Shown here one piece after another: positions 6,001-62,672 of a stretch of DNA of 64,000 nt. Origin of the DNA: Candidatus Hermodarchaeota archaeon (GTDB taxonomy: Archaea > Asgardarchaeota > Thorarchaeia > Thorarchaeales > Thorarchaeaceae). Each line of letters opens with the position of its first letter. The first letter of the stretch is position 1. The notes under the pieces are model-generated. The model searched no databases. It saw nothing but the letters and a program-made list of their open reading frames with translations, and was not told the origin of the DNA. Made by a program: the position numbers and the translations under genes. The DNA lies in contig JBHLLF010000008.1 of the NCBI GenBank assembly GCA_048885865.1, positions 38,926 through 102,925 on the forward strand, in the 5' to 3' direction.

Positions 6001-9000
6001 ACAGTCCAGTTCATGGTCATTGTGGCACCGCTGATTGGTAGAGAGGTTAGTGTATCGGAAAGCTCGAATTCAACATACAAGCCTTCACCGATGAGCTTGG
6101 CTGAGATACCATCCGATACTGCATCACCAGGCGCCGTTAGGCTCATAGAAGCTCCTCGTTTTACAATAAAGTTCCTACTGAATATCCCCACACTTTGATC
6201 AACATTGGCTCCATCATCGTAATACCGAGCAGTGGCTTGCCAGACTCCTGCTTGGGCTGAAGAATCAAGTGTGATTGCCGCGGATTCTGAATATCCTGGA
6301 GACTGCTCTATACTAATTGAGAAGAAGCTGCTTGGATCATTTTGGTTCTTAAATTGTGTTTCAATCCATCCAGCAGGACGTGCAACATCTGAGATACGAA
6401 CCTCGTCGATTTGTCCCTCATATTCGGCACTCCAGACAACATCCTTTGGCTGATCTCCATGACCAATCCAGAAGCCTTGCTCAGCTGTGGAGGGTAATAT
6501 TGCATCAGTCTTCTGGAGAACATTCGGATCCTGCACTCCGTCAACATAGATTCTCATCAAGCTGCCATCGTACGTGGCCACGATGTGATGCCAAGATCCT
6601 CCCATAACATCATTCGCTCCCACTAACTGGTGGGTCTCTCCTTGCACATTGAAGACAGGCTTGAGAGTCGATACGCCTCCCTCATTAATGAAGAGGCTAT
6701 AACCATTATACCACCCCTTGTGATTCATTATTCCATAGATGTGGGTGTTAGGTGTGATATCATGTTGGACCCACGCCTCCAGAGTTAGTTGATACCCGTC
6801 AATATTCCAAAGCGGGCTATCACCGCAGTCAATAAGGTCATAGTTTCCATCAAGATTATTGAAATCTTGGCCAAAGCCAATCTTGCCGGAAACTTGGGTT
6901 GGCACATAGGTGGCTTGGCCTTCTCCACCCTGGCCATGATGTTTGTATTGACTGCTGTCTGTATATTCATCAAGTGCTCCAGTTCCACTCTCTGCAAGGT
7001 GCCAGACGCCTAGATAGCCAGAATCCCATACCGGTCCTGAATCGTAGACTATTGGTGCTATGGGATTGCCGTAATACATGCTAATTGCGGTATCACTTGA
7101 ACCAGATAGCAATGGGACCTTAACCCATGCTGCGAGATGTGCATGTGTCGAGTTGAAAGTCTGGTCGAAGAGTTCAATCTCATGTGCAAGTGTTTCTTCT
7201 CCAATTGCGAAGGCTATATCTCTACCATCTGCACGAACATCTGTGCGTAGGTCAGCGTCATATATGTCAACAAGTACCGGGAAGTTGACAAGATCTGTAG
7301 CGACATTTTCATGGCTGATAGTAAGATATTTCCTGTGGGAGTAGGGCAGAGCGAATTTTTGGCCTTGAAATGTTGCTGCGCCTGAATACCAGGTTGAGCC
7401 GTATGGATCAGTCAAATCAAGTGATATGCCTGAGCTCATGGTTCCAGAACTCCATATCCGGAACTGGATTTCTTCTCCTATCAAGAAAGTGCCTGATGGA
7501 GTATAAGGTCCTCCTGACAGACCCATTTGTGTGTCAAAAACATGATTCCTGTCTTGGAATCGAATCCGCCACATACCATATTCATCAATCGCTGTTGAAG
7601 CAACGATGAGTTTCCCGTCGAAGCATGTCCAGTCAGTTGCGAATGATTTCTCTACCCCTGAAGGACTCATGACAGAAAATGGATACCATTCGCCTTCTGG
7701 ATAAGACAGCTCAAATGAAATTGATTCTATCTCAGGAGGAGGAGAAACCAGTACATTTGCTGTCCAGACGGCCAAGCTGCCATTTACTATTGAAAACGAT
7801 GTTCCTGGAATATAGTCATCTGTGTAGCTAAACCCTGAAGTGTGGGTTCCAAGCGAAGAACTTAATCCAATTGTAATGGCAACATCCGAGCTCGTGCTAA
7901 ATTTGTATCCTGATGCGTCCAGCAAGCTTGGTTCGCTTGGCTCTTCTGGAATGGCAATTTGCTCTTCCGCTCCAACAGAGTAGAAGCTAGCCGGGTCATT
8001 CTGATTTGCGTATTCTGTTGCAATCCACTCAGGAGAAAGGACGGCACCGAGAATTCTAAACTCTGAAATCGCACCAGGACCCCACATATTTCCGGCGCTG
8101 AAATCGGACAGAATTGCTAGCTGGTCCCATGGCAGATGTGGATTTGCATTATCTGCGCTATTGTCTGATGCATCCAATGAGCCATTTATGTAGTGATATG
8201 CCATTACAGCAGCCGTCGACCTTACAAATGAGAATTGAAACCATGAGTCTGCAGCCCAGGAATTCTTAGTCCCAGTACAACTATCATCATTATCTGATGT
8301 AACTTCTATGTGTGTTACAACGATTCCACTACTCGCGAATCTCATTAACGGATAATCATTTGTGAGACTGTTGCCCCGGAAAAAGTGCATCTCACTTCCT
8401 GGCGGAAACGTATTGTCGAACTTGAACCATGACTGAAATGTAGTGTCAAGCAACGGACCTGAGATACTGCTAACAGCAAACCTATCATTAATCCCGTCAA
8501 CTGAAATCGCTGTTCCTAATCTACCATCATAAACCCGTGAATCAGAATCAAATCCCAGTGCAGTCAAGTGATACCCATTGGCTGTGCTATCCAAGATGCT
8601 AGTGGATGATGGGTCCTGATTAAAGTGCCAAACTGCAACATAGTTGCTATTCCATACCTCAGATGGCCTCTCTTGATTGTTTATGCTTGGATTTCCATAG
8701 TACATGGTAATTGTAGTGTCCACTGAGGAGGATAGGTCTATCTTAACCCAAGCGACAAGATGTGCATGTGTCGAGTTGTAGGTCTGGTCGAACAGCTCAA
8801 TTTCATGTGGTAGAGATGAGGTCCCAATTTTGAAGATGATGTCGTCTCCGTCCGGCTGAACATCACTTCTGAGATCAGAGTCGAAGATGTCAATGAGCAA
8901 CGGAAAGTCTGTCAGGTCTGAACCAACCTTGGTGTGGTCTATTGTAATGTTCTTCATGTAATTATACTCAGGTGCCACACCCAAGAATTCAGCAGCGCTA

Positions 9001-12000
9001 ATAGAATAGAAGCTAGACGGATCATTCTGATTATTGAACTCGGTGAGTATCCAATCTGAAGAACGAGCAATTTTGGAAATTCGGACTTCATCCAACATTC
9101 CATCGAACATATCATCTGTGGTTGGACTGCTTTCGCCATTCAGCCTGAAATTAGCGCTGTTCTGAAGAGAACCTACACTGCCTATAGTTCCCCAAATGGA
9201 ACTCTTGTCATCTATCCCATCAACATAGATTGTCGAAATAGTATCGCTATCCTGATCAAACACATAGACAACATGGCGCCAGCCCGTGTTGAGAACAGGA
9301 GAGCTTGCATCAACGCCAAATTGGGGTCCATCAGACGATATGCTGTAACCAGGGTATCCATTGTTATCGTCCGATACAAACGCAGCATAGCCTGGACTTG
9401 AAGAAGCTAGGCCATTCCGCTTGCTTACCAAGAAAGGTTCATAGTAGTAGAAGTAGTCCAGATCCACCCAGAATTCGATAGTGAAATCATCCGTATTTCC
9501 GAAGTCGAGATGTCCATCTGCGGGATCTCCCATATTTACAGTGCCTAGCCCATCACGGTCGAAATAGTAAGCATTGCCTATGCGTCCCGATACTCCTTGA
9601 GTGAGCAGTCCTGATGGAGTTCCATGTGTTTGATATGGTGTAGAATCTTGAGCATTGCCACTTGTTTCTGAGAGATGCCATACGCCCATATAGCTACTAT
9701 CCCAGACGCCATCAGAATCCTCTTGATTTGTTGCTTCAGGATTTCCGTAGTACATAGTAACAATCGTATCAGATGATGATGAGAGGTCGGTTTTGACCCA
9801 GGCAACCAGGTGAGCGTGAGTAGAGTTGTAATCTCGGTCGAAGAGCTCTATCTCATGTGATAGTGATACATCACCTGTCTTGAAGATAATATCATCACCA
9901 TCAACTTGTGTTTCAATCTTGAGATCAGTGTCATAAATGTCGATTAGTAATGGGAATCCAACAAGATCTGAACTGACCTTTGTATTGTCAATCGTGATAT
10001 TCTTTCTGTAGTTGAAACCTTTGGGCTGGGGAGTTAGTTCATATCCCACCGTATAGAAGCTTGTGGGATCGTTCTGGTTTCTGAATTCCGCCAGAATCCA
10101 CTCGGCTGATCTGTCAATATTTGATACACGGACTTCATCGATGCGGCCATCATAATATTGATCTTCGAGACCTATGTTTAGGGGGGATCCAGAAACAGCG
10201 AGAGTGCCAGAATTAGGGATAGATGCTATCTCAGTACCATCCACATAAATGAATGTGGTTGTACCATCGTAGACTCCTACTACATGGTACCACCTGTTGA
10301 TGTCATTATTGGTCCGGGCAATCCAGGTCTGTCCAGTTCCGGTTGTTGTCACACTAAATGTGATTCTCCTAGTTGCATCCCAATCTTGAAAGATTTCGTA
10401 TGAGCCATACTTAACAACAATCCCTGAGCCCCATCCAGGCCCTATGTCCTCATTGAGGTATGCCCACGCTTCAAGTGTCACAACATCACCAGCAATATTC
10501 AGACTTGGCCCATTACCACAATTGATTGAGTCATCTACCCCATCGAATAGAATTGCATTGCCTATTGGTCCGTTTATTCCTAATGTGGGGGCGCCTGCAT
10601 CAGTTCCATGATTGTTATTGGAAGTTGAGTCCTTGAATGCTCCGCTCCCTCCACTGGTTTCTCCCAGATGCCAGACTCCCATGTAATTGTCGTTCCACAC
10701 ACTATTCGGGTTCTCTTGATTTGATGCTTGGGGACTGCCATAGTACATTGTAACTGCTGAATCAACAGTGGATGAGAGATCAGTCTTGACCCAGGCGACC
10801 AGATGAGCATGAGTTAGGTTGTAATCTTGGTCAAAGAGTTCTATCTCATGCGGAACCAAAGCATCATTCATCTTGAAGATGATGTCATCTCCATCTGCTT
10901 GAACGTCTGTCTTGAGATCAGTGTCATAGATGTCGATAAGCATTGGAAAATCTGAAAGGTCGGCATCAATCTGCGTATGGTCTACTACAATGTCCTTCCT
11001 GAATGCGAACTCAACTGGTTGGGTTATTATTTCAGCTCCAACCGAATAGAAGCTGGATGGATTGAGTTGATTGTTGTACTCAGTGATAACCCAGCCATCT
11101 GAACGTGCGGTGTTGGATACACGAACCTCATCGATTAATCCATCAACTGGATTGGGAGAAGATAATCCGCGTGAGATTGTGAAGTTGTCTGTGCTAGACA
11201 CACTTCCTATGCCACTAATATCTACATCTCCACTATAACTCCCATCTTTAAACAGATGCATTGTATTACTGCTTGTATCAACACAAGCAACAAGATGCAT
11301 CCATTCACCGAATGTGACGCTGTAACTGCCAGTAGATTCGTAACTAGTTCCATCACCTATCTGGAAGTAAATGTTTTGTCCGAGTGTGTTGGTTTCAAAT
11401 CTATAGCCGCTTTTAAGACCACTTGGATGTCCTTTGTTAAGAGGAGCTTGCCAAGAACCTGTGCTCGCATCAATCTTCAGCCATATACTAATGGTGAAAC
11501 TGTTTAGGCCAAAATCAAGATGACCATCTGCGGGGTCTTCCATGTTTATATAGCCATCAATCCCGTCGAAATCGCTGGCACTTCCTATTCTTCCTAAAAC
11601 TCCTAAAGTAACTCCACCAAACGGAGTCCCATCTTGACCATATGGTGTTGAGTCTTGAACACTACCGCTAGCTTCACCCAAATGCCAGACTCCAACGTAG
11701 CCATTGCTCCATACAGCTGAAGGGTTCTCTTGTTTCGATGCCTCTGGATTTCCGTAATGCATCGTGATTGTTGTATCAATAGTGGATGAGAGATCAGTCT
11801 TGACCCAGGCAACTAGGTGGGCATGAGTGGAGTTGTACTCCTGATCGAATATTTCTATTTCATGAACCAAAGGTGTCGTGCCAATCTTGAAGATGATGTC
11901 ATCGCCATCCGATTGTACATCAGTTCTTAAATCAGCGTCAAATACGTCAATGAGGAGTGGAAAATCTGTCAAGTCTGCAGAGACCTTAGTATGATCGACC

Positions 12001-15000
12001 ACTATATCCTTTTCATATGCGAACTCCACAGGTTGCGTGAATGTTTCTGAGCCTACGGAATAGAAACTGGCTGGGTCGTATTGATTATTAAATTCGGTCG
12101 CAATCCACTCTGGCGAGTATGCCATATTGGCAACCCGTACTTCATCTGTGTTTGCAGTGGACCAATAGCCAATAGTGCCACCAACTTCACTACGGAATGC
12201 GCCTATATAGAAGGACTCTGACTCGTCAAGACTACCATAGCCTGTAATATCCGTTGGAGAATTGGGATCTTCTACTCCATCAATGTATAATCGAAGATAA
12301 TTCCCATCCCTTACCAAAGATACATGGTGCCACAAATTGTCACCATATGTAGAAGTCGAGGTGACGCTCTTCGCTACGGTATTGTCGTCAATTTGCGCCA
12401 TCAACATTCCTGGACCTGATTCTATGCTAAGTCGATATCTCTTGGCGTTAAGTACAGCACCTTTTCCAGCAAGAACTCCCATGTCTACACCATCATACTT
12501 GAACCACAGGGACAGCGAGAAATCATTGGAGCCTACATTCAGCGAACTATCACTTCCACAATCGATGTGATCTTGATTATTATCGAAATCGATGCTTCCA
12601 TCGATTTGTCCATCTACTTGGTCATCGGACTGCAGATTATAGCCTGTTCCATGATTCGAATTTGATGTTGAATCATGAATCGCACCTGTGGGGTCTTCTT
12701 TTAGATGCCAGACGCCTGCATAATTGGAATCCCAAACGCCTGCTGCATTCTCTTGATTTACAGCCGTCGGATTGCCATAATACATCGTAATTACGGTGTC
12801 AGTTGATGATAGAAGGTTTGTCTTCACCCAAGCCACTAGATGTGCATGACTGGTATTATAGGACTGTTCAAAGACCTCAATCTCGTGAGGAATGATGAAG
12901 CCATCTTTAGCAAAAACGATGTCATCGCCATCAGCTTGGACATCTGTCTTCAGATCTGTGTCATAGATGTTGATTAACACTGGGAACTCTGTCAAGTCTG
13001 CATCGACCTTCGTGTGATCAATGACTATGTCCTTTTTGTAAGTAAGCTCAATTTGCTGGATATATTGTTCAGCTCCTATAGAGTAGAAACCAGCAGGATC
13101 ATTCTGGTTCTCAAACTCAGTGAGAATCCATCCAGGAGTGCGAGCGATTTCAGCGACACGAACCTCATCGATGATTCCATCCGTAGTTCCTGTCCATTCT
13201 TGCCTACCTATAATCAGGGGCTCTGTGTTAGTATCGATGTTTCCAGACATTGCAGAGTAGTCCTGTTCATAGCCATCAATGTACAGCCTACGATTTACGC
13301 CATCATATGTATATACGACATAGTGCCACCCTGCTGTCCCAATATTGTAGCCTGTATTCCAATTCCAGTCTGGAGGATTCCCTGGAACATCTGTATATAC
13401 CCAGATAGCTGAGGTTTCGAATGTAAGGCCGTAATAACCGCTGCCAGAGTCGTCCGACTTGATTGCAATCCCGCCACTAGGCGAGATGTCCGCTGAGTAG
13501 ATCCAACCTCCGACAGTTATCTTGTCCGTCGTTATATCAAGACTCACACTGTTTTGCATCTCAATGAAATCGTCTGCGCCATCGAATTGCTGTCCGCCCG
13601 CAATCCTTCCTGCTATCAGATTCGGGACATATCCCGCCGTTCCACCCCCTCCTCTCCCATGATTCCCATAGGCGCTACTATCTTTGTACTCACCTGATGT
13701 TCCATCGCCAATCTCCTTCAGATGCCACACTCCCCTAAAGTTGCTAGTCCAGACACCATCTGGGTCCTGCTGATTTGTTGCCGCAGGATTGCCATAGTAC
13801 ATTACAATCGTTGTATCAATTGTGGAGGAAAGATCGGTTTTCACCCAGGCAACTAAATGGGCATGAGTTGTGTTGTAGTTTTGATCAAAAAGCTCTATCT
13901 CATGCGACAGGAGTTTTGTGCCCATTTTGAAGATGATGTCGTCTCCATCGGGTTGAGCATCAGTCTTGAGATCCATGTCATAGATATTAACCAATAATGG
14001 AAAATCCATAAGGTCTGCATTGACTTTGTTATGGTCAACCACTATGTCTTTCTTATATTGACCTTCAATAGGCTGTGAGAATCCTTCTACTCCGACTGCG
14101 TAGAAGCCTGATGGATCATATTGGTTGCTGTATTCAGTGAGAATCCATTCTGATGAGCGAGCTTCACTTATCACGCGAACTTCATCAATCAAGCCCTCTA
14201 CCGGATATGAAAAAGGCGATAATTGCAGGCTCTGAGAGCTACTTACATCTCCCAATGAACTGATGCTTTGTGGTGATCCGACTGAGGCACCATTTGCATA
14301 GAATCGGAGAAAGCCTCCTGGAACATCCACAACTGCTACTATGTATATCCATTGGCCAAATGTCACAGAGGTTGAATCAGAAATGACCTGTACTGTTCCA
14401 TCTGCAACCTCAGCTTTTAGATCTGATCCTGCAGTGTTTGTTTCAAACTCGTATCCCGCATCGGTAGTCATAGTCCCTCCCTTGAATAGCGGTAGCTGAT
14501 AATTCCCCGTGCTTTGATCAACACGAACCCAAAGACTATAGGAAAAGGTGTTCAAGCCGAAATCAAGATGACTGTCAGAGGGATTTCCAAAGTTGACATT
14601 CCCATTTACACCATTGAATTCATAGCAATTCCCAGCAATGCCGGTTTGGCTATAAATCACGCTTGCACTTACTGAACCTGACAAGCCAAATTGAGTAGAG
14701 TCTATAGCATCTCCATTGGATTCACCAAGATGCCAGACGCCTGCGTAGTCAGCGCGCCATACTTCTGCAGGGTTCTCCTGATTTCCTATCGATGGATTAC
14801 CATAGTGCATTGAGATAATAGTATCAGATGTGGAAGAGAGGTCTGTTTTGACCCAAGCTATGAGATGGGCGTGGGTTGAGTTGTGCTGTTGATTGAATAG
14901 CTCTATCTCATGCGGAAGATAGCCGCTGCTAGAAGTGAATATAATGTCATCCCCATCTGCTTGAACATCTGTTCGCAAGTCAGTGTCATAAATATCAATC

Positions 15001-17750: not shown

Positions 17751-17799
17751 GTTTACAACTCCCACTAAGCAATGCAGGGATGGGACCAACAGAACTGAC

Positions 17800-17870
17800 C
17801 GAATAAATTAAGATAAGATATTCTTGTACATTGATTTGAGTTAATATATACGAATATAATATATTAGGTG
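17800..17870 (-). promoter_or_regulatory. AT-rich putative archaeal promoter region for giant-1
   Basis: Very AT-rich intergenic tract with TATA-like runs (TATATTATA, TATATATTAA on the minus strand) 50-120 nt upstream of the ATG. Exact TATA/BRE not assignable. Confidence 0.4.
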
Positions 17871-17897
17871 TTTGTTTGGTTTGATTTGGCTCGTCGT

Positions 17898-18521
17898 CTA
17901 GAGGTATTCGATTCTCCCCATGTCAGTCAAGGCGTTAAGTGCTGGGGGGTTGAGAATCTCTATATTTGGCTCCCTCCAAGATACGAGTTTTGTTTTCTCT
18001 GGAACGGAAAGCTTGTGCAATGACGCACATGAAAAAAGAGCACTTAGGTCAAGTCGCATGATGTCATTTCCAAGTAGGTTCAGCTCCTCAAGTCTTGGAC
18101 ACTTAGAAAGCGGGGTGAGATCTAATGCTTTCATTTGATTATCCTGTAGATACAGAGTTGTGAGGTTCTGACATTGAGCCAGTGGTTCCAAGTCCAATCT
18201 GAACAGTGCATTGTTGCTGAGGTCCAAATGCTTCATATCGCAATACTTCAGTGAATCAATGTCAATCACTCGTAAATGATTTGAATTGAGTCTAAGGCTG
18301 TGCAGAGATTTGCAGAATGCCAACGCCACCAAATCCAGGGTCATTAGGCTATTATTGGCTAGATTCAATTCCTCCAAACCGGTCATATTGTCCAAGGGGC
18401 CAAGGTCGATTGCCATAATTGACTCGTTTGAGAAGTCCAAGGATAAACTGTCCGGCACCACTGGTATCTTCCTCGATGTTCCATCTGCCAATGTCACCTT
18501 AAAGTGTATCAAGACCTTCAC
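17898..18521 (-). CDS. Cytosolic leucine-rich repeat protein (about six 24-aa LRRs)
   Basis: Repeats of LxxLxLxxNxLxxLDLxPLxxCxx, e.g. LTTLYLQDNQMKALDLTPLSKCPR; no signal peptide or TM segment. Confidence 0.92.
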   Translation of the reverse strand: MKVLIHFKVTLADGTSRKIPVVPDSLSLDFSNESIMAIDLGPLDNMTGLEELNLANNSLMTLDLVALAFCKSLHSLRLNSNHLRVIDIDSLKYCDMKHLDLSNNALFRLDLEPLAQCQNLTTLYLQDNQMKALDLTPLSKCPRLEELNLLGNDIMRLDLSALFSCASLHKLSVPEKTKLVSWREPNIEILNPPALNALTDMGRIEYL

Positions 18522-18705: not shown

Positions 18706-18710
18706 ATTGT

Positions 18711-32040: not shown

Positions 32041-35000
32041 GGCTCTGCACCCCCATCACCCAGAACGGTTCTCACCAATTCATCCACAAGACTTCTTGGT
32101 AGATTAGCTACCTGTTTCATAATTGATTCAATCTCTTGCTCTGGAAGACCTGCTCCAATCAGCCGTTTTCTTAGCTTTGCCAACTCGGATTCTGATAGTC
32201 TATCAGCATCCGCCTCTGTGGAACCGTCATCATCAATTGGCTTCGCAGGTTTTTTCTTTCCAATTCCTTCATCCCTGATCAGGGGTCTTCCTTCAATCAC
32301 TGCACGAGCCTGAGTTGCAAGGTCCTCCAAGAAACGCTCTAGAGATTTGCCTTCTGTTTTCGCCTGTTTTATTGCTTGTTGAGTGATGACTTCTTTGGTG
32401 AAAGCGACCTGTTCACTAAGCTTCATCTTTGAAACTTCTTCCCTGAAGTCCTCAAGTTCTCCGGGTGTCATATCCGTAAGGATGGTCAGCTGAATGAGCA
32501 GTTCTTCTATTTCGGGAACATCAATCCTGACTGAGAATCTGGGCATTGCATCTGGTTGCTTTGTGACTCCAACTCCTGCGCAGGTTTCATTGAAAAGAGC
32601 AGCGATGATTTCTTGTCGATCTTTGATGCCATCAGGTTTCTTAGGAACCACTCCGTGCTTGAGCGCTTTTATCATCTTGTTCAGTTTTTTCAGCATCTCA
32701 GGTAGTCTGAAGACTCTTGACCATAGAATTGCGCCTAATATAACGATTGCAATGGTTGGCAAGCCGTATAGTATTGCACTCTGTATGAGTAGGTCGGTGG
32801 AACTTGGCTCAACTGCAATAGTGATTGAGAATTCTGATGATTGGTGATTCTGTTTCGACAGGATAATCCTGATTACGGAGCTTCCCTCTTCAAATTGAGA
32901 TGATATAGTTATAACGTACCAGCCGCCTCCGTTCGCGTCAGACTCATTCGAACGGATGATAACATATCTTGTATTGAAACTCGTAGCATTGACAATTCCA
33001 TTCTCAATGCCAGCATTACCATGAGTTGGCCAGATGTCGATATACCTTACTCGAATTTCATGCGTCTGACCAAAGGAGAGACTTATCGAGGAAAGCCCGT
33101 CATATATGAGTGTGGTTGGAACGATTACTATGGTGATATAGACACTGATAGTCGCTGTAGTTCTGTTTTCAAGTCCGATTTTTACAATCAGATGATAGGG
33201 CTCATCGACTACAAACCATCTGCTGGAATCGAAACCTATTGTATAATTGCCGCCAGATAGTTCGGCTATGGGCAGACTCTCCTTATCCGATATCATCGAG
33301 GGATGTGTGAGAACTGCTTCTAGGTATGTCGCTCCTGTGATTCCTCGTAGGTAGGTTGTATCGTTGTACAGACATATGACATTAAGCAAATCCCCATGAG
33401 GGACTATTAGATTCGTTGGGTCATCCTCTTGCATATTCACTTCGTCTGCATATACCTCAATCTCTGTGGGAACGCTAAGCACTACAAGATTGAACACTCC
33501 TGTTCCACTCTCATAATTCTCCTTCCATAGATTGAGAATGATCGGATGTGTGCCTGGCCTTACGAGCGAAGTATTAACAAAGACTGAATAAGACCCGTTT
33601 CCGAGGTATGACGCCTGATCTTCGCCTCCATCCCACTCAATATATGCATAGGCATCATTTACACCCACGTTTCTAATGAGGTCCCAATAGGTGAAGCTCA
33701 CATAGCCGCTCCAACCCCATATGTGAGTTGCTGTCTCTGGAGATCCTACCCAGGTCTTCAGACGCAATACTGTCAGTGTTGTTGTGTTGGACGCTTCCGA
33801 GAATGTCTTGTTTGTAGGCACTGCAGATATTCTAATCGTATAGGTAGATGCTCTGAGGTCCTCAGTATCAAAGTCGTAATAGAAATAGCCTGGTCCTCCA
33901 AGTAGAGTTCCATTTTCAAAGAGACCATTTATGGATGTCCCAGACACTGACCATGAAACAAGGCAATCTGATAGGCCTGTAGAGTATGGATCACCTGGAT
34001 TCAGACTCGGCACCAGAACATAGACCCCTAGTCGGACAACATCAGTCCAATTGAATGCTCTGTTGACATAAGTTTGAGTGGTAGCATCCAACCAGAGAGT
34101 AGAAGTTATTTGGACAATCTTGACAGATATTATACCGAATGCTGTCATGTAATTGTCCTTCTTCAAAACGAGATTGAGTGTATAAGTGCCAATGTCCTTG
34201 GCCCCTGTGTTCATCGACCCCGAGTAGTAGCCAGGTTCACCGGGGACTGCAGGAATATAGAACGGCGCACCCGGAGTGTCGCTCCAATACGCTTCAATGA
34301 ATGCACCAGATAATGGAACACCGTTGTGGGTGTCATTCACAAAGACTGTGACATTTACAGGTTGACCTCTGTAAAGGTCCTGGGATTGAAGTCCGCCCAT
34401 CAATGTCATCTCTGTTGGTAGTTTGAGAACATTGACTGTGACTTGAGCTGTTGCTGTTTGGTAGTTCTGATAGGAAGCAGTTATTATGACAACATAGGTG
34501 GTCGCCCATGCAAGCCTCCCTGTGTCAAGGCTAAAGGAATAGTTGCCTGGTGTATTCTCGCTTAGCGAGCCTGCCAGTGTTCCAAACTCATAGGTGAGTG
34601 ATGCCAGAGATATTGGCAAGTCATGCAATGTATCATTATAGATAGCTGAGATTGTTACATTCTCACCCCAGTATACATCTGGAACATTTGAAGTAGGAGT
34701 TAACTCAGCTGGGATTGGTCGAACCTCAATATTCACACTTATGTCGGATATGAAATAGTCAGACAGGCTGCCAGCCACTTGGAGAGTGTAGGCTCCCGCG
34801 TTAAGAGCGGAGCTCCATAAAGTGATTTCATAAAGACCATTTCCCAAGTCTACATAGGTAGAAGAATCAGCCCATGATAGAGCTAAAGATGCACCGGAAA
34901 GTGGCATATCAAAGGCATCTCTATCAACAAGCTCAAGGACCACTATCGCATTCTCTCCTTTCCAATTGTTCACTTGCGAACGGACAATCAGCTCGCCATC

Positions 35001-38000
35001 TCGAAGCCTGATCTGAAACGGAATCTGCAGTTCAGCAATTTGGTAGGGATAGAGGTCAATCTCGACAATTAGAGCATCTGTCCCTGAAGCTGCTGCATCT
35101 GAGCAGTTTACAGTTAATTGATAGACTCCTGGAGATACAACATAGATGTTCCAAATGGATGGGGCCAATCCAGTTGATTTATACCGCACATTGGCAACAG
35201 CCTCTGCACCAGTGATTTGCACAGAATGATCAAGGTCCGTGAAATTAAGCACCACTGAGCAGTTATAGTAAAGCGGCACAATCGATGGATTTGGTATATC
35301 ATTAGTGAGAAGTGCTTGAACCAGTCTCACAGATCCGGTGAGGTACAATGTCGTGGTGTTTCTGTAATATGGGGATGTTCCAGAGTCCCATAGCAGTTTC
35401 AGTCTAAATGTGAAGGTTCCTGATGATCCCAAAGCATTCGAATCAACGACAATCTCGTATGATCCTTCCCCTTGAGTGTTTCTCAAGACCCAGAAGTCGA
35501 CATTTTCAACAAGATTCGAGGGATTAAGGCAATCGAAATCTACTAGTGCCCCACTTATTGCCAAGCCATTTCCTTCATCCACAAAAGTGGCAATCAGACT
35601 CATGTTGTCTCCTATGGGGACGGTAGGAGGCTGATCTAAAGTAACCAAGCCGATACGATTGGTGGTAGTGATGCTCATAGACGCCTGGTCGGAAGTATAG
35701 AAAGGTGCAACAAGAGGACTCCAATTGACCACCAATGTCAGATTCCAGTTGGATACAAGTCCAGTTCCGAGAATTGTTGAGTTTATCTCAACATAATAGT
35801 CTCCAAGAATTTCGACAAAACTGAAGTCATCTTGCTGAAGCTGGACTCCACCACTGAAGATGGTGACAAGACTCTTGGTGATAGATATTGATTGGTCCTT
35901 ACTGACGTCGCTATATCTGAAAGAGAAGGTTAGATTGTCTAGGTAGGCAGCTTGGTTTGGCGGCACTACTATGTCAGTTCTCGCAGCACGCTCAACAATG
36001 CTTAATCCAACGCTGAGTGATGAGTTTCTATGATAGGGTGCTCCCAGCAGCCAATTTGCTCTCACCTGGACAATATGAGATCCAAGTCCGGCAAGTGAAG
36101 TTGAGTCAATAGAAATGTAATACTCTCCGCCTGGAATGGCGTTTACAAAGTACTCAATATCCTCTACGAGTTCTGTGATGCCATAGTAGATGTCAATCTC
36201 CCCATTCTCAATACCCGAAATCAAATCTAGGTCTTGATAGAGTATTGTGAAATTGACTAGATCGAGATAGGCCGTAGGCATTGGAAAATCAGTTAGCTGC
36301 AGAGATGATGATCTATACCTAAGCTCGAAGGATAAATAGACGTCTGACCATCGATAAAATGGAGCAACATCAGGATAGCTCATTCTAATGAGAAGCACAT
36401 AGGGCTTGCCAATTTCCAGCATCTGATTGTAGGTTTCTATGACGACAAGATAGTCTTGGGAAGATGATCTCCACTGCGAATCGAATTCCCACGAGCTTCC
36501 ATTGAGAATCTCTATTCCAATGGGTTGGCTGCCGTTTCCAATGCTCTCCGTAGTTAGCAGGTCCTGATATTGCAGGATTGCATTGAGTGAGTCGTTGAAT
36601 GGTATAAGCCCTATTGGATTTGCAGTAAGAGTTGTGAGTCGATATTGAATCTGAAGTGACCTTGTCGCGGAGGCTTCAGGGATGTAGAAATTAGAAGATA
36701 CAATTACTACTGTCAGATCATATATGCCTGGAGTTGTGAAGTAAGTCGTGTTGAACTCTACTTCATAGACCCCTCCGCCAAGCGCCAATACTGAGTAATA
36801 GACAGCAGGTATTGTGCCAATGCTGTCTTCCAGAGTAATAGTGCAGCCATCAATTGGCACTGATGGATTCTCAGTAACATCGAGATAGTTCACAGTGAGA
36901 GTCAGATTTGATTTAAAGGGAGTTGGAGGAGGAGTTGGATATTCAATCACTGTTTCCCTATAGAGTACTGTAATGAGCACAACGCGGTTCGTAACATTCG
37001 CATAAAATGGAGTCCCTACCCAACTGACAGAGATCGTGAATGACTTCGAGCCAATTGACGCTCCCAATACACTTGTGTTGAATGAAATGTGGAAGGTCAT
37101 TGTCGTATCATTGTACCAAAGGGAATAGTCAGCAAGACTAAGAACTACACTCATCTGAGGTTGCTTCGCTATCGGCATAAGAATTACATCTGTGGCATCA
37201 TCAAAGGTAAAGCTAAGGGTTGCATTCACTCCATATGGCGTACTATCTGGAGGATTAACTGACAGCAATGTATTCCTTGCTGTCACTCTTACTTGTACAA
37301 CACTGGTCTTATTCGGATAATATGGTGCTACTCCGGCTGACCAGTTAAAGTATACAATCATAGTGAACAAACCAGGTTTACCAAAGACCGTGCTGTTGAA
37401 CTGGATAGTGTATTGTCCAGGATTGCCAACAGGATCAATTTCCCCAATATCTATCAAAGAATCATCGATAGACTCGCCAACAAACACGATATAGACGTGG
37501 ACGTCCTGAGTTGTGTAGTTGGATATCCCGTCCCCACTATAGAGCTCACTGTAGACATAGAGATAGCTCATGTTTTCCAAGTACGCAGTTGGACCGGGTG
37601 AATCAAGGAGTGTTAGCTTGGACTCTTCACCAATTATGTTGACTGAAGCGGAGGTCGTTCCATTGAAGAACTTCGGACCAGGACCAGTCCAATTGAGGTA
37701 GACTGTAAAGTTATAGAGCCCTGTCGATCCAAAGACTGAAGCCGAAATGCGTAGGATGTAGTATCCGCTTCCTAGTGATGTATCATTATCAAGAGAAAGG
37801 AAGGATATTACTCCAGTCTGGTTTCTTACTAACACATCAATGTTGGATGACCAAATGCCTACATCATTGTCGAGGTCTCCATAGTAAAGGGAAACATTGA
37901 CCACTCCTGCGTAGCTGGTTGGTTCAACAATACTTCCCAAACGAAACTCTGTATAGTGAGTTCTGAGATTAATGCTGACATTGAAGTAGCCAAACTGATA

Positions 38001-41000
38001 GTTCTGGCCCTTTGAAAAGTTGAAGAGAATTAGATAGCTGCCCAAAGGATCAGAGTCGAAACTTGCGAAGTCTACCCTATACTCAGATCCTGTCCAGAAT
38101 ACAGCTAGGCTATGAGTCCAGTTATGACTTAATGATGCGCCTATGATTGGTTCATCATTAGTAATATCCCAATAGTCCACATAGAAAGTGTATGTGTCTC
38201 CTAATGGCAGATCAATAGATGTCACAGTGGGACGGGCATACGCATATGCAATTTGCACAATCACCTCGAAAGCAAGTGTCTTAGCTTCATAACCAACTGC
38301 ATCTGCGGTGAGATTAACTGAGTGGCCGCCTTGATTCCAACCGAATACAACGATGATCACATCATAGTACCCATCACCAACGTGCTGCCAAACAATCGAA
38401 GCTCCCTGAGCAGTTATTGATCCCGTTGTTATATTGAGGCTTCTATCGAGATCAACGTAATGAAGAGAAACCGTGACATTTGTGTTGTAGGTAGTTGCAA
38501 CCTGAGGATATTCCTGTGACGAGAGAGATGCACGAGTAGCCCTGTAGGTGAAAATGATCATGGGTGTCTGAGTGTCTTCATAAATTTCTGCAGGGAGGAA
38601 GTCTAGGAAGATGGTGATCTTATAGTCGCCTTCGAAGAATGCTCCTCCTCCAATTACCAGCCTATAACGCCCATCTGCCAGAAATGTCACTGAGATGGCA
38701 TAAGGGCTTCCTGTATCATTTTCAGCGGAGAAGTATCCTGACGCAATTCCATTTATTGGAATTCCGTCCACTGCTGTTCCGGGTTCAGTGACATTCACAT
38801 GAAGGAACATCTCGAAGTCATCGCCGTTGGGGATTGGGTCGAGATGCTCCCAAGTCAAGAATACATTTAGTTTCCGCACCTCTACTTGACTTGTTATGAG
38901 GGCATCGTCGTAGAATCTTGGTGAGCTAATTGCTTGCAGTGTCACGTTGATTTCATGGATGCCGACAGCCCATCCACTCGTGTCAAGCCAGAAGCCATAC
39001 GAGAAGAATGTGTCTGAGCCTCCAACCCATTCCACAAGTATGAGACTAAGATTGCCTGAGGGGATGAGTTTGGAACCTCCATCAAGATCAATGTATGAAA
39101 CACTCAGATAGGTTAGAGAACCCACAGGTGTGGTGGAGTTGATTTCGAGGCCCAAGGATGTTCTGTGAGGTATTATATTCAGAGTGATTGAGGCTGTTGC
39201 ACTCTGATAGTTCTGCTTTGAGACTGTCAGATGAATAACATGCGTTCCCAAGGCGTAATCACTTGTGTCGACTGTGACTCCATAGCTGCCATCGCCAAGG
39301 TCAATGAATTGAAGAGAGGCCGTTGATGTAATCGTGCCTCCAAGAATCCCAATACCTCCATTGTCATTATCATACCATTGAAGCGTTGTATTGACTGTTT
39401 GACCATATGGGACTTCAGCAGGATTTGAACCGGTTGTAATTGCAGTTGTTTTGATTGTCCGATATGTAAATGTGACATCCAAAAAGCACGACATCACCAG
39501 TGGATCAATAGGTTCGGCTGTTATCCTGAAGACATGAGTACCAATGTTATACCCTGAGCTATTGATTGAAATCAGATAGGTCCCATTTCCATAATCAACG
39601 GGCGATAATGAGAATGTTCCATTTGATGTGATTGTCGCTCCACTGATTAGTGAATTATCAAAAGCATCTCTAAGATTCACCTTCACTATGAAATCTTCAC
39701 CATAGGGAATGGGATTCGGAGGCATAGACGTGAGATAGCTCCTGTGCGAGAGATCAATATCCACATACTCTGTTGCATTTGCGTAGTATTGGTGATAAGA
39801 GCTGAATTCAATCCTCCATCTTCTCGCTTCGCCTAGATCAGAAGTGTTCAGTGTTTTTCCATATCGACCATTTCCGAAATCATTCAATTGGACTAATGTT
39901 GGTGTGCCTAGAACAGTCCAGTTTATTGTGACGGTGGCTCCAGTCACAATGTTGGAAGTCACTGTATCTATGAGTTCAACCTCCAAATACACCTCATCAC
40001 CCGCTTCTCTTGAGGCAATATGGTCAGAGAGCGCGTCTGATGGAGCTGTAAGACCAATCGCTGCTGAATGAGTTACAATGAAGTTTCTACTGAGGGTCCC
40101 TACACTCCCGCCCGGTAGACCTGTGCTGCTCCTATATCTTATTCTAGCAGTCCAAAGACCTTCTGACGCTGAGGCGTCAAGATTGATGTCGGACGTTGTA
40201 TAATTGCCAATGGATTCTTCCAAACCAATTGTAACGAAACTCTGTGGATCTGCCTGATTCTGATGTTCAGTCCAAATCCAATCGCTTGAGCGTGCTACAC
40301 TCGATACACGCACTTCATCGATTTGCCCTAGCCATGGAAATGACCAAGCCTTAGCTTCTGGATGGTCTCCATGACCGATTCTAAATGGTTCAGGCAGAGC
40401 CGATAAAATGTCATCATTCTTTTCCAAGGATGCTGGATCAGGATTTCCATCTATATAGAATCGCATATGGGTGCCATTATAGACCGCAACCACGTGATGC
40501 CACTCATTTGGTGCGAAACTCTGGGACGTTCCCAAGGAATAGTCGCTGCCATGTAGATTGAAATTGATGTTTTGACTATTCTGCGGCATAACCAGTCGAT
40601 AGCCATTGTACCATCCCTTGTGATTAAGAGGGCCCATATTTGGATGCGTTGCAGGATATTGCATCCAGAGCTGGAGAGTGATTTCGGATCCGGTGATATC
40701 GAGACTTGTGTCATTTCCGCAGTCAATGAAGTGGTCAACAAAGTCCTGTCCAAAGCCAATAGCTCCGGGTGTCTGTGTGGGAACATAGCTCGAATTCCCC
40801 AGTCCGCCTTGTCCATGATTGGCATAGATGCTGCTGTCAGCATACTCATTGGCAAGACCAGTCCCAATCTCTCCGAGATGCCATACCCCTGCGTAGTTCG
40901 AGTCCCAGACGCCTGCAGGATTCTCTCGATTTGGAGCATATGGATTCCCATAGTACATTGATATTGTAGTGTCTGCATTGGCCGAAAGATGTGGAACCTC

Positions 41001-44000
41001 TATCCAAGCAATCAAGCGGGCGTGTGTGCCATTGAAATCTTGGTCAAACAGCTCGATTTCGTGGTCCAAGACAAGGTCGCCAATAGCGAATGCAATGTCG
41101 GCACCATCAGGTCTTACATCTGTGACGAGGTCAGTATCATATAGATCAATGAGAACAGGGAAGTTCTCAAGGCTTGATGCAACTTTATTGTGATCAATAA
41201 CAATGGATTTTCTATGTGAGAATGGAAGAGAGAATGGCAATCCTTGATACGCGGGTTCCGTTGAATGCCAGATAGCTCCAGATGGATCCAGCAAATCAAT
41301 AGAAGTAATTGACCCAAACATGGAAGGAGCTAGGCTTCGAAAACGAATTGAATCTCCTACTGCGAATGTTCCGGTGGAAGAGAAAATCCCTCCTGAAAGA
41401 CCCATATCAAGATTTATGATTTGGTTTCTATCCTGGAACTCTAATTTCCAGATGCCATGCATATTTGCGGCACGGGGAAAGACTGTGAGTCCTTGTCCCG
41501 ATCTTATCCAATCCACATATTCCGTTTTCTGGGTGCCGAGTGGACTTGTAACTGCAATCGGTTTCCATTCCGCTGTAGGATAATTGATGCTGAATCCCAG
41601 ATAATCCACACCAATCGGTGCCGCCAGCTCTATTTTCGCAGTCCAAAGCGGAGGAGTTCCATTAGCGACTGAATAGCTTATTCCAGGCGAAAGATCATTT
41701 GTAAGACTTTGACTAGCGCTGCTAATGTTGAGCTCCATTGTCGCAGAAAGAGACACAGCTGAATTTGAATTCGTTGTGAATCCAACACACACCTCATTTG
41801 TGACAGTTCCTGACTCCTCCCCAACAGAATAGAATGATGAGGGATCCTTCTGATTCAGATACTCAGTGTATATCCAATTGGGATCAAGAGGATGCATTGC
41901 TATTCTAACTTCATCAATAAAGCCATCCAGCTCGTATCCTGGCCTTGAGAGGCTAAATGGTTGTGTTGTACTAAGACTCTGAAAGCTTGTCAATGATGAG
42001 CCAGATCCCGTTATAGTTCCATCTCGGAATATGAGGACTCTGTTTGTTTCTCTATTGACGACAGCAACGAGATAGACCCATTCTCCGAATGTGATGGGCG
42101 ATGAGGTAGTAGTTCTCACTATGCTCCCATCACTGATCCACGAGCTTATAGAACTCGCATCGTTTGATGTTTCTATGTCATATCCTGCGTTTATGGAGGA
42201 AGACCCACCTTTGTAAAAGGGTATCTGATATGTTCCAGTATTGGAATCTATTCTCACCCAGATGCTGTATGAGAAGCTAGATGTTCCAAAATCAAGGTGG
42301 CCATCAGATGGGTCACCAAAGTTGACAGTTCCATCGATTCCATCAAAAGAGTACGCTTGACCTATATAGCCACTAGTCCCTTGCAATATTCCACCACTAG
42401 GAGTTCCTTGTGTCCCATGCAATGTTGAATCCAGTGCATTCCCAGAATCTTCCGATAGGTGCCATACGCCTGCATAACGATTAGACCACACACCAGCTGG
42501 ATTCTCTTGACTGCCGACGTCGGGATTACCATAAAGCATTGTAATTTCAGTGTCTAATGAAGATGAGAGAAACGGTATACGTACCCATGCAACCAAGTGT
42601 GCATGAGTTGGGCTGTAAGTCTGATCGAATATTTCTATCTCATGATCCAAAACAAGATCCCCAATTCGGAATGAGATGTCATCACCGTCAGGTTGCACCT
42701 TTGCACGCAAATCCTCGTCAAAAAGCTCGACTAGAAGTGGAAAATCGTTAACGTCTGCTAGGACCTTGCTACTATCGACAGTGATGGTCTTCTTGTTAGC
42801 AAATCCCTGAGTTTGAAATAGGACTTCACTTCCTATCGAATAGAAATCCTGCGGATTGTTCTGATTGGCATATTCAGCAGAAATCCAAGCGGCAGAACGA
42901 TCAGTAGTGGAAACCCGAACCTCGTCTATTATGCCCAGAAACTCGTATCCAGTATCGCCGTTGCCATGAGTTCCAATCTCTAAATCATTGCCGAGGTCGT
43001 ATATGATTGAATTGGTATCTCCATTACTGTCTACTTGTTGGCCATCGATATATAGAAACATACCAGTTGGTCTTTGAACAGCAACAAGATGATGAAAACC
43101 ATCTCCAGTCACATTCACCCCCATAGGAGCCATATTCACCCATGAGCCGGCAATGCGTTTGAAGAAGAGTACTCTACCATTACTCCATACTCTAAGCGCA
43201 TAGCTATCCCCTCTGGTCACTACTTCTCCTCCAACCGACTCATCAACTTTCACCCATGCAGAGATAGTTATCTGGCTTGCCTGGTCGGTGTTGACTGGAT
43301 TGGACACAGTGACATGGTCATTGTCTCCTCCAAAGCTAAAAGCTCCATCAATCTGCCCCGCGGCATCAGTAGACCCGCCGCCCCCATCTTGGAAGTTCAA
43401 TGGAGTTCCGTCATTGCCATTGGCTGTCGAGTCCTTGGCCCCTCCCGGTGTACCGTCGCTTGGCGCCCTATTCAAGTGCCACACGCCGGCATAGTTGTTG
43501 CTCCATACGTCGCTGGGATTCTCAGAGTTATCGTAGGTTGGATTGCCGTAGAGCATGGACAAGGTTGTGTCAGCTGTTGATGAAACATCGGTCTTAATCC
43601 AAGCTACTAGATGAGCATGAGTGGAGTTATATGATTGATTAAAAAGCTCAATCTCGTGTGGAAGAACCACGCCATCTTTTGTGAACACAATGTCGTCACC
43701 ATCAGCTTGGGCATCAAATCTGAGGTCTGTATCATATGTATCGACTAATAGCGGGAAGTCTGTCAAGTCGGCATCGACTTTCGTGTGATCTATTACGATC
43801 TCTTTGTGGTAGAGAAAACCTCCAACTGTTTCGAATAGAGGTATTTCACTTCCAATAGAGAAGAAACTGGCAGTGCTATATTGATTATTGAATTCAGCTG
43901 TAATCCAGTCAGCAGAACGAGCTATATCTGAAATGCGGATCTCATCAATCGTTCCCTTGAACCAATCTGCAGCCCCCCAGATATAATCCAAGACTCCAAT

Positions 44001-47000
44001 ACTTGCCTTATCAGTGGTCAATGTTCCCGCATCTTGCGTACTGTTTCCATCGGAAATGCCATCGATGTACAGCTCACGGTTTGCCTTCGACCGCTGAACA
44101 AGAGTAACGAAGTGCCACTGGCTATCCTCTACGTTGGTCGAGCCAATCACTTGCGCGTAATAGCCAGTTTCTGTTTCTGAATAGAATCGCACCTCTGAAT
44201 TAGTGTCATCTACATATAGGAAGAGATAGTCTGATACACCTGTGTCTCCCTCACTGTATATCGTCCGCTGGTCTGCTGTATCGGCACCTATTCTTATCCA
44301 AGCTGAGATTGTCCAAGCCGCACCGTTTCCGATGACCACACCAGGAAGACTCACCCCGTCATTAGACCCATCGAAATCCAGAGAACCATCAATCTGCCCT
44401 GCTATTTGGTCGCCTGAACTCATACCTCCTGAAGAAGTGCCATCATTATCATTGGAGGTCGAATCATAAATCGTTCCAGTTGGATCATCATTCATATGCC
44501 AGACTGCGCCGTATGAATTGCTCCACACACTGATAGGATTCTCAAGGTTCACAGCCGAAGGATTTCCATAATACATTGAAACTACAGTATCCATGGAAGA
44601 CAAGAGGTCAGTTTTAACCCAAGCGACAAGATGGGCATGAGTAGAATTGTAGTTTGGGTCGAAGAGCTCAATCTCATGGGGTAGAATCCAGCTCCCCTTT
44701 AGAAACAAGATATCATCACCATCAAACTGGACATCAGTCTTCAAGTCTGCATCATAGATATCAATCAGCAATGGGAAGTCTTCCAAGTCCGAATTTACCT
44801 TTGTGTGGTCAATAACTATGTCTTTCCTGAAATTGAATTGAATTGCCTGTGTCAATTCAGGACCAAGGGATATGGAAGGTTCAGGGCTCAGAAATGGCCT
44901 AAGAAATGCATCATCTGCATAAATCGTATTAGGCTCCGTCTGCGGGGACGCCCAATAGAACACTGTGCAGAATCTATCAATACCCTCGGTCCCGAGGTTT
45001 CTGCCTGTTTCCTCAATCTCGAGATTTCCATCCATCCACAATCTCGCCTCGCCATTGGTGTCAGAGATTCGAGCCTGCATCTCTAGCATATGCCAAGAAC
45101 CTGTGGAAATAGTACTTGTAGCCATGTAGCCATAGGCTTCCCCGGCGATTGCGTTCCACATATACAGCGTCATGTCATCCTTTATTGTAACGCTAATCTG
45201 GTTCTGCCACCCAGTCGAAGTGTCAACATACTGCATTATGGTTACATGATCGGTGGTTGAGAATCCTGCTGGTAGGTAGAAGTGAACTCGAGCAAGTAGA
45301 TTCATCGAGTCACTGAAATCCCACCAGACCATCCCTTGAGCGGCTGCCTGGTTATCTACATCTGCTCTGACTGCATAGGTGCCGGAGTGGACTGGAATGA
45401 GCGGTGTATTTAGAACCAGCAATGTATCACCAATATCAGTATACGAACCATTCCAGCCATCAAGATTTCCACTCTCAAACCCATCATAGAAGGAGAACAC
45501 GCGTGAGCTATCACTTGGAGGAGAGCTAGACAAAGGATTACCATAGTAAAGGTAGTAGCCCGAATCTGAAGAAGACGCTGGAATTGATGTTTGTGTCTTG
45601 AACCATATCTTGGTAGAATCACTATTCCAAGTCGAATCAGTGTCCAGCATCCTATCGAGTTCGATCCATTGGGATCCATCCCAATACACTACACGAATGT
45701 CGTCCCCATTTGCCAAGGATTTTCCTTCGCTCACTAGCGCCGCATGATCAAATGTCAGATGGACTGAATATCCTGCAGGGATATTAGATGCATCGGCAGA
45801 AACTGTGGCTGCTTTTCGATAACTCCAATCTGAATCGAACCATGCTATTTGGCTCTCTTGACCTATGCTGTAGAATGCCAATGGGCTGATTTGGTTTCTG
45901 TAGCTTGTCAAGACCCATTCAGAAGTCCGAGCGTTTTTAGATACCCTCGCTTCATCAATTAGACCATCCCATTCTTGGTCAAGACCTACCGAACCTGGAT
46001 TATTGCCTATATGAAGGACTGAGTCTCCAACCTGCATTGAACCAGTATAGGCAGCAGTGTTTTGTAGGATACCATCAACAAAAAGATACAGATTCTGCTG
46101 GGTGGCATCAGCAACACCCACCAGATGATGCCAACTCCCATCATTAATTAGACTATACGCTGTACTCACTAGCTGCGTGTCATCCACGAAGAATGCCAGG
46201 GTACTAGCATCCAATTTCCCGAGCCAGTAGTTTCTATTGCCTACCTCATTCCATTTTGCAAGGATAGCATCTGAGGAGATGTCTGTATTATTTGTACGCA
46301 CCCAGGCTTCAACAGTTACACTTCCTGGTATTGCTAGGCTGTTGCCATGGGGAACCTCAACTCGACGTAGAGTCGCACCGTAGAACTCTGCTGACATACC
46401 AATTTTCCCTATGACATAGCCCGGCTCATTGCCTGGAGGCTCACCCGTCCCATCATTGCTGAATGATGTGCTATCGAAGTTGGTGCCGGCGGGATCCTCA
46501 TCTAGGTGCCATACTCCAACAAAGTCGTCGTCCCACACTCCTTCTACCGTTTCCTGATTTCCAACATACCTGTTTCCGTAAAGCATCACAATGTCTGTGT
46601 TCCTGGCTGATGAAAGAAATGGAACACGTACCCATGCTACCAGGTGAGCACGAGTCCCATCCCCTGTACGATCAAATAGTACTATCTCATGATCTAGAGT
46701 TTCATGACCGATCATGAACCCGATGTCGTCCCCATCTGGTTGAACAACAGTATGCAAGTCCGCATCCCAAATATCAACCAAGACCGGGAAATCATATAGG
46801 TCGCCGGCCACCTTCATATGGTCAATGCTTATTGTCTTGCTCTTTTCAAAGCTATATACAATGTCCTCAGATTCCGGAGCTAGATAGTCCACGAATAGCC
46901 TAGAAAGATCAGCTTGAGGATAATTGCTTGATCCTTTGACGTTGTTCCAGGACAAGTCATTTGTCGAGTGTGCATATTCAAGCATGATACAGACATAATT

Positions 47001-62670: not shown

Positions 62671-62672
62671 CG

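Follow-up and report, generated by a model that had tools for sequence, protein, structure and literature searches.

A single module slot with zero to eight lectin-like cassettes in predicted giant surface glycoproteins of one Thorarchaeota family

A 64,000-nucleotide stretch of a Thorarchaeota genome (contig C8, positions 38926-102925; hereafter the window) carries three very long, co-linear open reading frames (ORFs) on its minus strand, and the question it raises is why the three paralogs, here called giant-1, giant-2 and giant-3, should differ so greatly in length. The source is a metagenome-assembled genome (MAG) of 3.58 Mb in 117 contigs (G000), in which the full stop-to-stop frame of giant-1 encodes 6560 aa. 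Archaeal proteins of more than 5000 aa typically have one, and sometimes several, N-terminal Laminin_G_3 domains, and their function is not understood; the survey of huge proteins that reported this includes three from Thorarchaeota (PMC11573180). The initial annotation of the window ascribed the differences between the giants to an accordion-like slot, with 8, 5 and 0 DUF2341-LamG cassettes at the same position of an otherwise constant chassis, which would tune the valency, specificity and reach of the head. Our analysis bears out the single site, where counts from 0 to 8 occur among relatives, but the units in it are unlike one another. We consider it likely that the giants are type-I surface glycoproteins whose tip bears a multi-specific lectin array built by recombination.

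Two landmarks delimit the slot. The motif DL[AS]RL[FY][VI]D[FY], which closes the head, occurs once per giant, at aa 531, 536 and 523 of giants 1, 2 and 3, and so does the start of the spacer, F[TS]T[NS]S...PG.S[YF]...WTA, at aa 3297, 2246 and 552. Both had been noticed beforehand and needed one correction, as five residues, not four, separate the asparagine from WTA. A hidden Markov model (HMM) built on the cassettes themselves maps eight of them to aa 551-3276 of giant-1, with a further one at 3483-3829 beyond the spacer. In giant-2 it finds canonical slot cassettes at aa 556-888, 1227-1558, 1567-1898 and 1905-2235 and a post-spacer cassette at 2432-2767; a variant module occupies approximately aa 889-1226. 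In giant-3 the spacer (aa 532-739) abuts the head, and the single cassette follows at 740-1088 with an E-value of 1e-115, within the range of 1e-111 to 1e-145 recorded for domains of the three giants. The nucleotide positions are collected in Table 1.

Table 1. Features of the window (position 1 is its first nucleotide)
Feature	Position	Strand	Remarks
Giant-1 gene	3-17789	-	clade I; C-terminal ~625 aa lie beyond the window edge
Giant-1 stalk, part inside the window	3-6302	-	beta-rich
Giant-1 post-spacer cassette	6303-7343	-	type C
Giant-1 spacer	7344-7961	-	206 aa; conserved in all paralogs
Giant-1 slot	7962-16139	-	8 cassettes, types A J R B F K L M
Giant-1 head	16140-17789	-	ends in DLARLFVDF
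Leucine-rich-repeat protein	17898-18521	-	207 aa; no signal peptide; Pfam LRR_8 3.6e-22; directly upstream of giant-1
Ras/Roc-like protein	18711-20030	+	439 aa; Pfam Ras 4.1e-13; divergently transcribed
Giant-3 gene	20083-32040	-	clade III; 3986 aa
Giant-3 tail region	20083-21300		
Giant-3 post-spacer cassette	28777-29823	-	followed by stalk, transmembrane helix and 405-aa tail
Giant-3 spacer	29824-30447	-	directly after the head (slot empty)
Giant-3 head	30448-32040	-	
Giant-2 gene	32040-48515	-	clade II; 5492 aa
Giant-2 tail region	32040-32720		
Giant-2 post-spacer cassette	40215-41222	-	type C; 54% identical to that of giant-1
Giant-2 spacer	41223-41810	-	
Giant-2 slot	41811-46850	-	4 canonical cassettes and 1 variant module, types E v O P F
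Giant-2 variant module v	44838-45833	-	DUF2341 and PF14099
DUF4332/HhH protein	48655-49227	-	190 aa; directly upstream of giant-2; also in L010 and L030
Divergent ORF	49350-49844	+	164 aa
Syntenic flank of giant-2	49900-63900		ordinary genes

Pairwise blastp alignments place the difference at the same junction. Residues 15-544 and 3285-5929 of giant-1 align with residues 3-538 and 536-3194 of giant-3, and residues 21-557 and 2246-5484 of giant-2 with residues 8-544 and 552-3800. Insertions of approximately 2740 aa in giant-1 and 1690 aa in giant-2 thus lie between residues that are adjacent in giant-3, and they are the sole large difference; in the shared parts (head, spacer, post-spacer cassette and stalk) the window paralogs have 28-55% identity. 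The proposed series of 8, 5 and 0 between the same two landmarks is confirmed by both the HMM map and the alignments, with the qualification that the second of the five giant-2 modules is a variant combining DUF2341 with a polysaccharide-lyase-type domain in place of LamG. Likewise, the remainder of the ectodomain is co-linear and each giant retains one post-spacer cassette, as had been claimed, within the window; family-wide the chassis is less constant, since the post-spacer cassette is absent from two clades and length varies.

One such exception lies close by. A fourth giant just downstream of giant-1 and outside the window (C8:25093-37080) has the head, one cassette and the spacer and lacks a post-spacer cassette. 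A fifth, on contig C47, has one cassette in the slot and one after the spacer (1+1, in the notation used below), and a sixth on C2 is cut at its N-terminus. The family comprises at least five genes per genome and takes up approximately 2% of this MAG.

To place these counts among relatives, the same HMMs were applied throughout to species-representative genomes (all of them Thorarchaeota or archaeal MAGs), JGI metagenomes and genome regions. The head domain was found in 60 of the 76 genomes of one Thorarchaeota family versus 4 of 224 others sampled from the phylum, three of those four being weak partial matches. Among approximately 45 relatives every slot count from 0 to 8 occurs, always at the same junction: besides 0 and 1, we found 2 (L043), 3 (L032), 4 (L008, L011), 5 (giant-2, L010, L069), 6 (L003, L021), 7 (L002) and 8 (giant-1, L001, L006, L009). 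The order of the junction is constant in paralogs and relatives alike, with the head motif DLARLFVD[FY] followed by a proline-rich, acidic linker of about 10 residues and then by a cassette or the spacer, and the post-spacer position holds one cassette or none. The cassettes thus occupy an equivalent site in all of them. ORF length proved an unreliable guide to the count: relatives of approximately 5060 aa seemed to be three-cassette forms and turned out to be 1+1 proteins with longer stalks.

Short-read assembly, from which these MAGs derive, is known to have difficulty with repeat arrays, and the arrays might have been mis-assembled repeats. This explanation has a negligible probability and we reject it. 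Exact DNA matches between any two cassettes extend to 30 nt at most, so short-read assemblers would not be expected to collapse or inflate the arrays, and Tandem Repeats Finder returned no rows over positions 1-49000 of the window. MAGs obtained independently from other samples (L001, L010, L019 and L022) also show the 8+1, 5+1 and 0+1 architectures. Every intermediate count is present as a single open frame, except for the two-cassette L043, and all checked arrays are single frames apart from L043 and L069. In L043 the head is split between two reading frames, and in L069 (G239:C1:1710199-1722800), a five-cassette member from another genus, the open frame stops inside the post-spacer cassette. 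These two irregular frames may be frameshifts, pseudogenes or assembly errors.

Having a single site of variable occupancy, the slot might have grown and shrunk by copying its own units. Classic repeat-number variation in bacterial adhesins uses near-identical DNA repeats. Such tandem repeats, the hallmark of contingency-type genes, are absent from the giants, which differ in this respect from repeat-number-variable adhesins. Window cassettes share 32-54% protein identity, and recent tandem duplication can be dismissed on this ground together with the lack of any detected tandem repeat. DNA similarity between cassettes (64-74%) falls largely within the DUF2341 halves, in the first ~350 nt of each cassette. 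Across 98 aligned cassettes, mean protein identity is 56% for the DUF2341 halves and 29% for the LamG halves. A maximum-likelihood tree of these 98 cassettes and 8 variant modules, combined with clustering of the LamG halves, resolves approximately 20 discrete LamG types. Most types span several species, their clades have SH-aLRT support of 95-100, and orthologous LamG halves are 72-100% identical across species. These sequence comparisons indicate that the cassettes are old, distinct LamG types on a conserved DUF2341 frame and not fresh copies of one unit.

A tree of the head domain has six clades, of which clade I (the giant-1 type) has 4-8 slot cassettes, with counts that differ between species, and its sister clade II (the giant-2 type) has 5. 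The others are constant: clade III (the giant-3 type) is 0+1, clade IV 0+0, clade V 1+0 and clade VI 1+1. Clade VI is the most widespread and has long branches, and its count never varies; its members, alike in their 1+1 head region, measure between approximately 4100 and 5600 aa. Four of the six paralog clades are thus fixed at 0 or 1 over deep divergence and only clade I varies, which means that the slot is open in one lineage (clade I, with its sister clade II) and frozen in the others.

A true accordion, meaning a dedicated site with frequent duplication and deletion at which copy number is tuned and varies within populations, is accordingly quite improbable. It has in its favour the occupancy of 0-8 at one junction, the spread of 4-8 between species of the giant-1 clade, and a comparison of giant-1 with its closest ortholog, L001, that could be explained by two reciprocal deletions if the ancestral array was longer. 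It has against it the absence of recent duplicates noted above, the four clades fixed over long branches, and congeneric genomes that keep 8 and 5 cassettes while types are replaced at constant count. The term is misleading, because like units have not been multiplied and most paralogs do not vary, although the one site with its range of counts stands.

What does vary is the content of the arrays. Compared with giant-1 (Table 1), L001 has the string A F H T U K L M, L006 has A J E v P L B D, L003 has A H E v B D and L008 has A B E D, each with C after the spacer; the giant-2 ortholog L010 has E v O B F, again followed by C as in giant-2. Type A at the start, the E-v pair, the final D or K L M and the post-spacer C are stable, and type changes concentrate at position 2 and in the array interior. 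L001 and L010 both belong to the congeneric genome G230, which allows the giants to be compared with their surroundings. The 14 kb of ordinary genes adjoining giant-2 are 94% identical in DNA between G000 and G230, whereas the giants are only 74-91% identical to their G230 orthologs. The counts of 8 and 5 are kept, and the LamG types differ in 4 of the 8 and 1 of the 5 cassettes. When cassettes at the same position are compared in close orthologs, the DUF2341 halves are 68-77% identical and the LamG halves 25-33%; where the types differ between these two genomes, the DUF2341 figure is 73-77%. Among the genes of the syntenic flank are those for an HD hydrolase, a STAND-like ATPase, a signal-peptidase-like protein and a rhodanese/MBL protein.

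The DNA alignments of the two ortholog pairs change abruptly. Giant-1 and L001 are 80% identical up to where the DUF2341 half of cassette 2 ends, are shuffled inside, and are 91% identical from the end of cassette 5. Giant-2 and L010 are 88% identical until the DUF2341/LamG boundary of cassette 4, after which approximately 275 aa cannot be aligned and identity resumes at 74%. The breaks in similarity fall in DUF2341-coding DNA or at cassette junctions, and the slot is flanked by DNA of unequal divergence, a mark of recombination between alleles that had diverged. The giants therefore show the pattern of module swapping, in which relatives exchange variable lectin cores set in conserved frames. 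The interior DUF2341 halves of giant-1 and L001 are all about equally similar (70-74%), so that they provide no positional orthology, and a swap of LamG halves is inseparable from reciprocal deletions in this pair.

It could be argued that such changes have no adaptive meaning and that the slot merely tolerates insertions, domain number drifting neutrally. Independent beta-sandwich modules with short linkers do tolerate insertions and deletions, and the 1+1 members of other genera, whose stalks differ in length by about 1000 aa or more, would fit the same explanation. Drift of this kind is nevertheless unlikely given that LamG types are conserved across species, that the checked arrays are open apart from the two irregular frames, and that the giants diverge far faster than their flanks, as expected under diversifying selection or frequent allelic exchange.

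The predicted folds suggest what the exchanged units might do. Pfam recognizes Laminin_G_3 (PF13385) in giants 1, 2 and 3 with E-values of 2.6e-140, 7e-92 and 6.3e-14 (463, 306 and 53 bits; cut-off 27.6) and DUF2341 (PF10102) in giant-1 and giant-2 with 118.2 and 112.8 bits (cut-off 23.4). The DUF2341 of giant-3 scores 17.9 bits, under this cut-off, in the same cassette that matches the cassette HMM well. A cassette consists of a DUF2341 beta-sandwich and a LamG/ConA-like lectin domain, and AlphaFold2 (AF2) predicts it as one rigid two-domain unit (pLDDT 96.4, pTM 0.93). In structure comparisons, including one with Foldseek, the LamG half (residues ~106-321) matches ConA-like lectin, LamG and carbohydrate-binding module (CBM) domains with Z of 13-21.5, the best matches of the AF2 model having Z of 19-21.5 and rmsd of 2.1-2.7 A over approximately 200 residues. 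They include the HCN subdomain of clostridial toxins and NTNH, the arabinan-binding domain 4 of AbnA, CBM40, pentraxins and neurexin LNS domains, at 11-22% identity. One LamG half also matches PF07953 with 68 bits. Membership of the clostridial neurotoxins was nevertheless rejected, as what is shared is the generic ConA-like jelly roll and Pfam identifies no protease, translocation or HCC domains.

The variant module departs from this scheme. It matches PF14099 (Polysacc_lyase, also ConA-like) with 41.9 bits against a cut-off of 29.9 and DUF2341 with 33.6 bits, and does not match Laminin_G_3. In orthologs it always follows a type-E cassette, and the eight copies, from eight proteins, form a conserved, short-branched clade. 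Judging from these profile matches, it could be an enzymatic unit within the lectin array.

The head of giant-1 is predicted by AF2 to comprise a signal-like hydrophobic N-terminus, approximately 85 disordered residues and two CBM-like beta-jelly-roll domains (pLDDT 76 overall, ~85-93 for the two domains). Its top Foldseek matches are tandem CBM22, the surface glycan-binding protein SGBP-B of Bacteroides and the CBMs of GH101. No Pfam family was found in aa 1-550, and no NCBIfam family matched the three heads at E<=10. The earlier label "DNRLRE-like" is not upheld, as the DNRLRE profile (NF033679) gave no match at this threshold and the predicted fold is a CBM-like jelly roll. Pfam scans of the giant-3 spacer, and of the giant-3 stalk with which that of giant-1 is co-linear, also returned no family. 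In the ESM Atlas the spacer yields sub-threshold leads (0.87), with a hemicentin-type GBD in about half of the cluster members. Scores for the TafC family fimbrial protein (NF052521), 91.4 and 77.7 bits, lie far under the cut-off of 410.

All five complete paralogs have a hydrophobic N-terminus, a single C-terminal transmembrane (TM) helix and a tail of 216-407 aa. In the genome frame of giant-1 the tail has 235 aa; in giant-2 the helix lies near aa 5250 and the tail has about 228 aa. N-x-S/T sequons are concentrated in the stalk of giant-1, at 2.45 per 100 aa (window 3-6302) versus 0.18 in the head and 0.44 in the array, and 0.18-0.49 over head, cassettes and spacer (window 6303-17789). This bias would fit a glycan-covered stalk that bears uncovered binding modules. 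By a rough estimate, a stalk of ~27 Ig-sized domains would be roughly 100 nm long, and every cassette would lengthen the protein by a few nm.

The resemblance to carbohydrate-binding proteins also permits another interpretation, namely that the giants are not adhesins and that the head, cassettes and lyase-like module bind, and perhaps cut, environmental polysaccharides in the manner of an SGBP or a cellulosome scaffold. Polymer capture of this kind draws on the head matches to tandem CBM22 and SGBP-B, the LamG-half matches to AbnA domain 4 and CBM40, and the variant module that passes the PF14099 threshold; we regard it as possible but not likely. No other catalytic domain was found in the N-terminal 3400, 2700 and 1200 aa of giants 1, 2 and 3 or in the stalk and tail of giant-3. 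In addition, a long stalk, a TM helix, a cytosolic tail of 200-400 aa and conserved cytosolic LRR (leucine-rich-repeat) and Ras-like neighbours are more in keeping with a receptor or adhesin than with a feeding scaffold.

Returning to the likely reading, a recombination-built lectin array on a type-I membrane protein, the family would consist of giant, membrane-anchored surface glycoproteins, and the window would encode their outer, ligand-binding part. Each member runs from a signal sequence through the two-CBM-like head, the linker, the slot, a spacer of approximately 200 aa and zero or one cassette to a sequon-rich stalk of some 2400-2900 aa, one TM helix and a cytosolic tail. The slot, between tip domain and stalk, contains zero to eight rigid two-domain cassettes, and recombination would be the process by which arrays lose, gain or replace whole LamG-centred units. 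The outcome is mosaic arrays of 4-8 in one clade and small fixed counts of 0 or 1 in the other clades. From fold class and topology, the modules may bind glycans or other surface ligands, and if so, the array would set which ligands, and how many, the tip can hold, and thereby what the cell adheres to, be it partner cells, particles or polymers; the stalk, shielded by glycans, would project the array from a wall-less cell. That the array tunes valency, specificity and reach is, in this setting, a reasonable inference.

Several points weigh against this reading. The breakpoints were located in only two ortholog pairs, both taken from one pair of genomes, and their positions are blurred and approximate, because BLAST extends through any DUF2341 half (67-75% DNA identity). 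At such low DNA identity, cassettes within a gene should seldom undergo ordinary homologous recombination with each other, so the exchanges may instead be allelic, between diverged lineages. All genomes compared are MAGs, and chimeric binning could misassign alleles to genomes, although it cannot create in-frame arrays. Finally, the proposed binding is read from fold class, and a shared fold does not by itself show a function.

Recombination-diversified binding modules on a constant stalk are ordinary for microbial adhesins, and the giants have likenesses among known systems. Giant proteins of more than 4000 aa with DUF2341 are known in Patescibacteria (the candidate phyla radiation, CPR), and domain reshuffling has been suggested for them (PMC11809585). 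Giant size, DUF2341 and suspected module reshuffling are common to both; the host here is an Asgard archaeon, variation is confined to one defined junction, and the chassis of two-CBM head, spacer, sequon-rich stalk, TM helix and long tail is restricted to a single Thorarchaeota family and belongs to no Pfam family. Archaeal type IV pilus loci encode DUF2341 proteins that have been proposed as tip adhesins (PMC4858521). Like the giants, these contain DUF2341 and are inferred to be adhesive and to act at the distal end of a surface structure, but the giants have a TM anchor and a stalk of their own, and the window contains no pilus genes. In Apilactobacillus kunkeei, Giant1-5 are tandem giant adhesin genes with intragenic recombination (PMC12863079); points in common are consecutive genes for 3000-8000 aa, a long stalk with the binding region at its N-terminal side, and short recombination tracts, while the head of the A. 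kunkeei proteins is a beta-solenoid. The survey of huge proteins introduced above (PMC11573180) gave no site, cassette definition, comparison of paralogs or orthologs, or mechanism.

What is new is the Asgard host, the family-restricted chassis, the single slot with its complete series from 0 to 8, the opposition of fixed and variable clades and the conserved neighbours. The DUF2341-LamG module-swapping design of ultra-small bacteria would thus also occur in Asgard archaea, on a chassis of a Thorarchaeota family. Cultivated Asgard cells are wall-less and decorated with unidentified surface proteins, which are thought to mediate cell-cell and cell-substrate contacts (PMC13716822). The giants are concrete candidates for the proteins behind such contacts in Thorarchaeota, and they provide a defined variable region, approximately 20 lectin-like module types and conserved cytosolic neighbours.

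These neighbours were followed by tblastn synteny in 17 loci. The LRR protein stands directly upstream of every clade-I giant examined, with 39-94% identity, and the Ras/Roc-like protein is found in one or two divergently transcribed copies beside most clade-I giants wherever the upstream sequence is long enough; besides the window, the pattern draws on loci L001-L011, L021, L024-L027, L032, L037 and L043. Together, LRR and Roc-like neighbours recall a ROCO protein split over two genes. In this genome and in G230:C19, G093:C13, G272:C87, G140:C6, G218:C38 and G087:C47, a short clade-V giant with one cassette and no post-spacer cassette comes directly after the expanded clade-I giant. In the present genome the two frames overlap by 28 nt, and the giant-2 frame likewise overlaps the start of giant-3. 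Such overlaps and the recurrent order suggest that long-short pairs are conserved and probably co-translated.

A bolder proposal would make the giants Asgard adhesion receptors, in which a shuffled "lectin code" at the tip picks partner cells or surfaces, the tail signals through the LRR and Ras/Roc-like neighbours, and long and short giants act as a pair, in an integrin-like outside-in system. We hold this to be a long shot, about as improbable as the accordion; if true, it would place integrin-like outside-in adhesion in archaeal relatives of eukaryotes.

Two minor observations concern the neighbours and tails. By the clade-II giants (also in L010 and L030), the N-terminal part of the divergent 164-aa ORF resembles that of the Ras-like protein. 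Tail lengths differ between paralogs, and a loose motif count finds helical repeats of the G.P..E[IV] type in the tails: three in giant-3, two in the fourth paralog, one each in giant-2 and the fifth, and none in giant-1.

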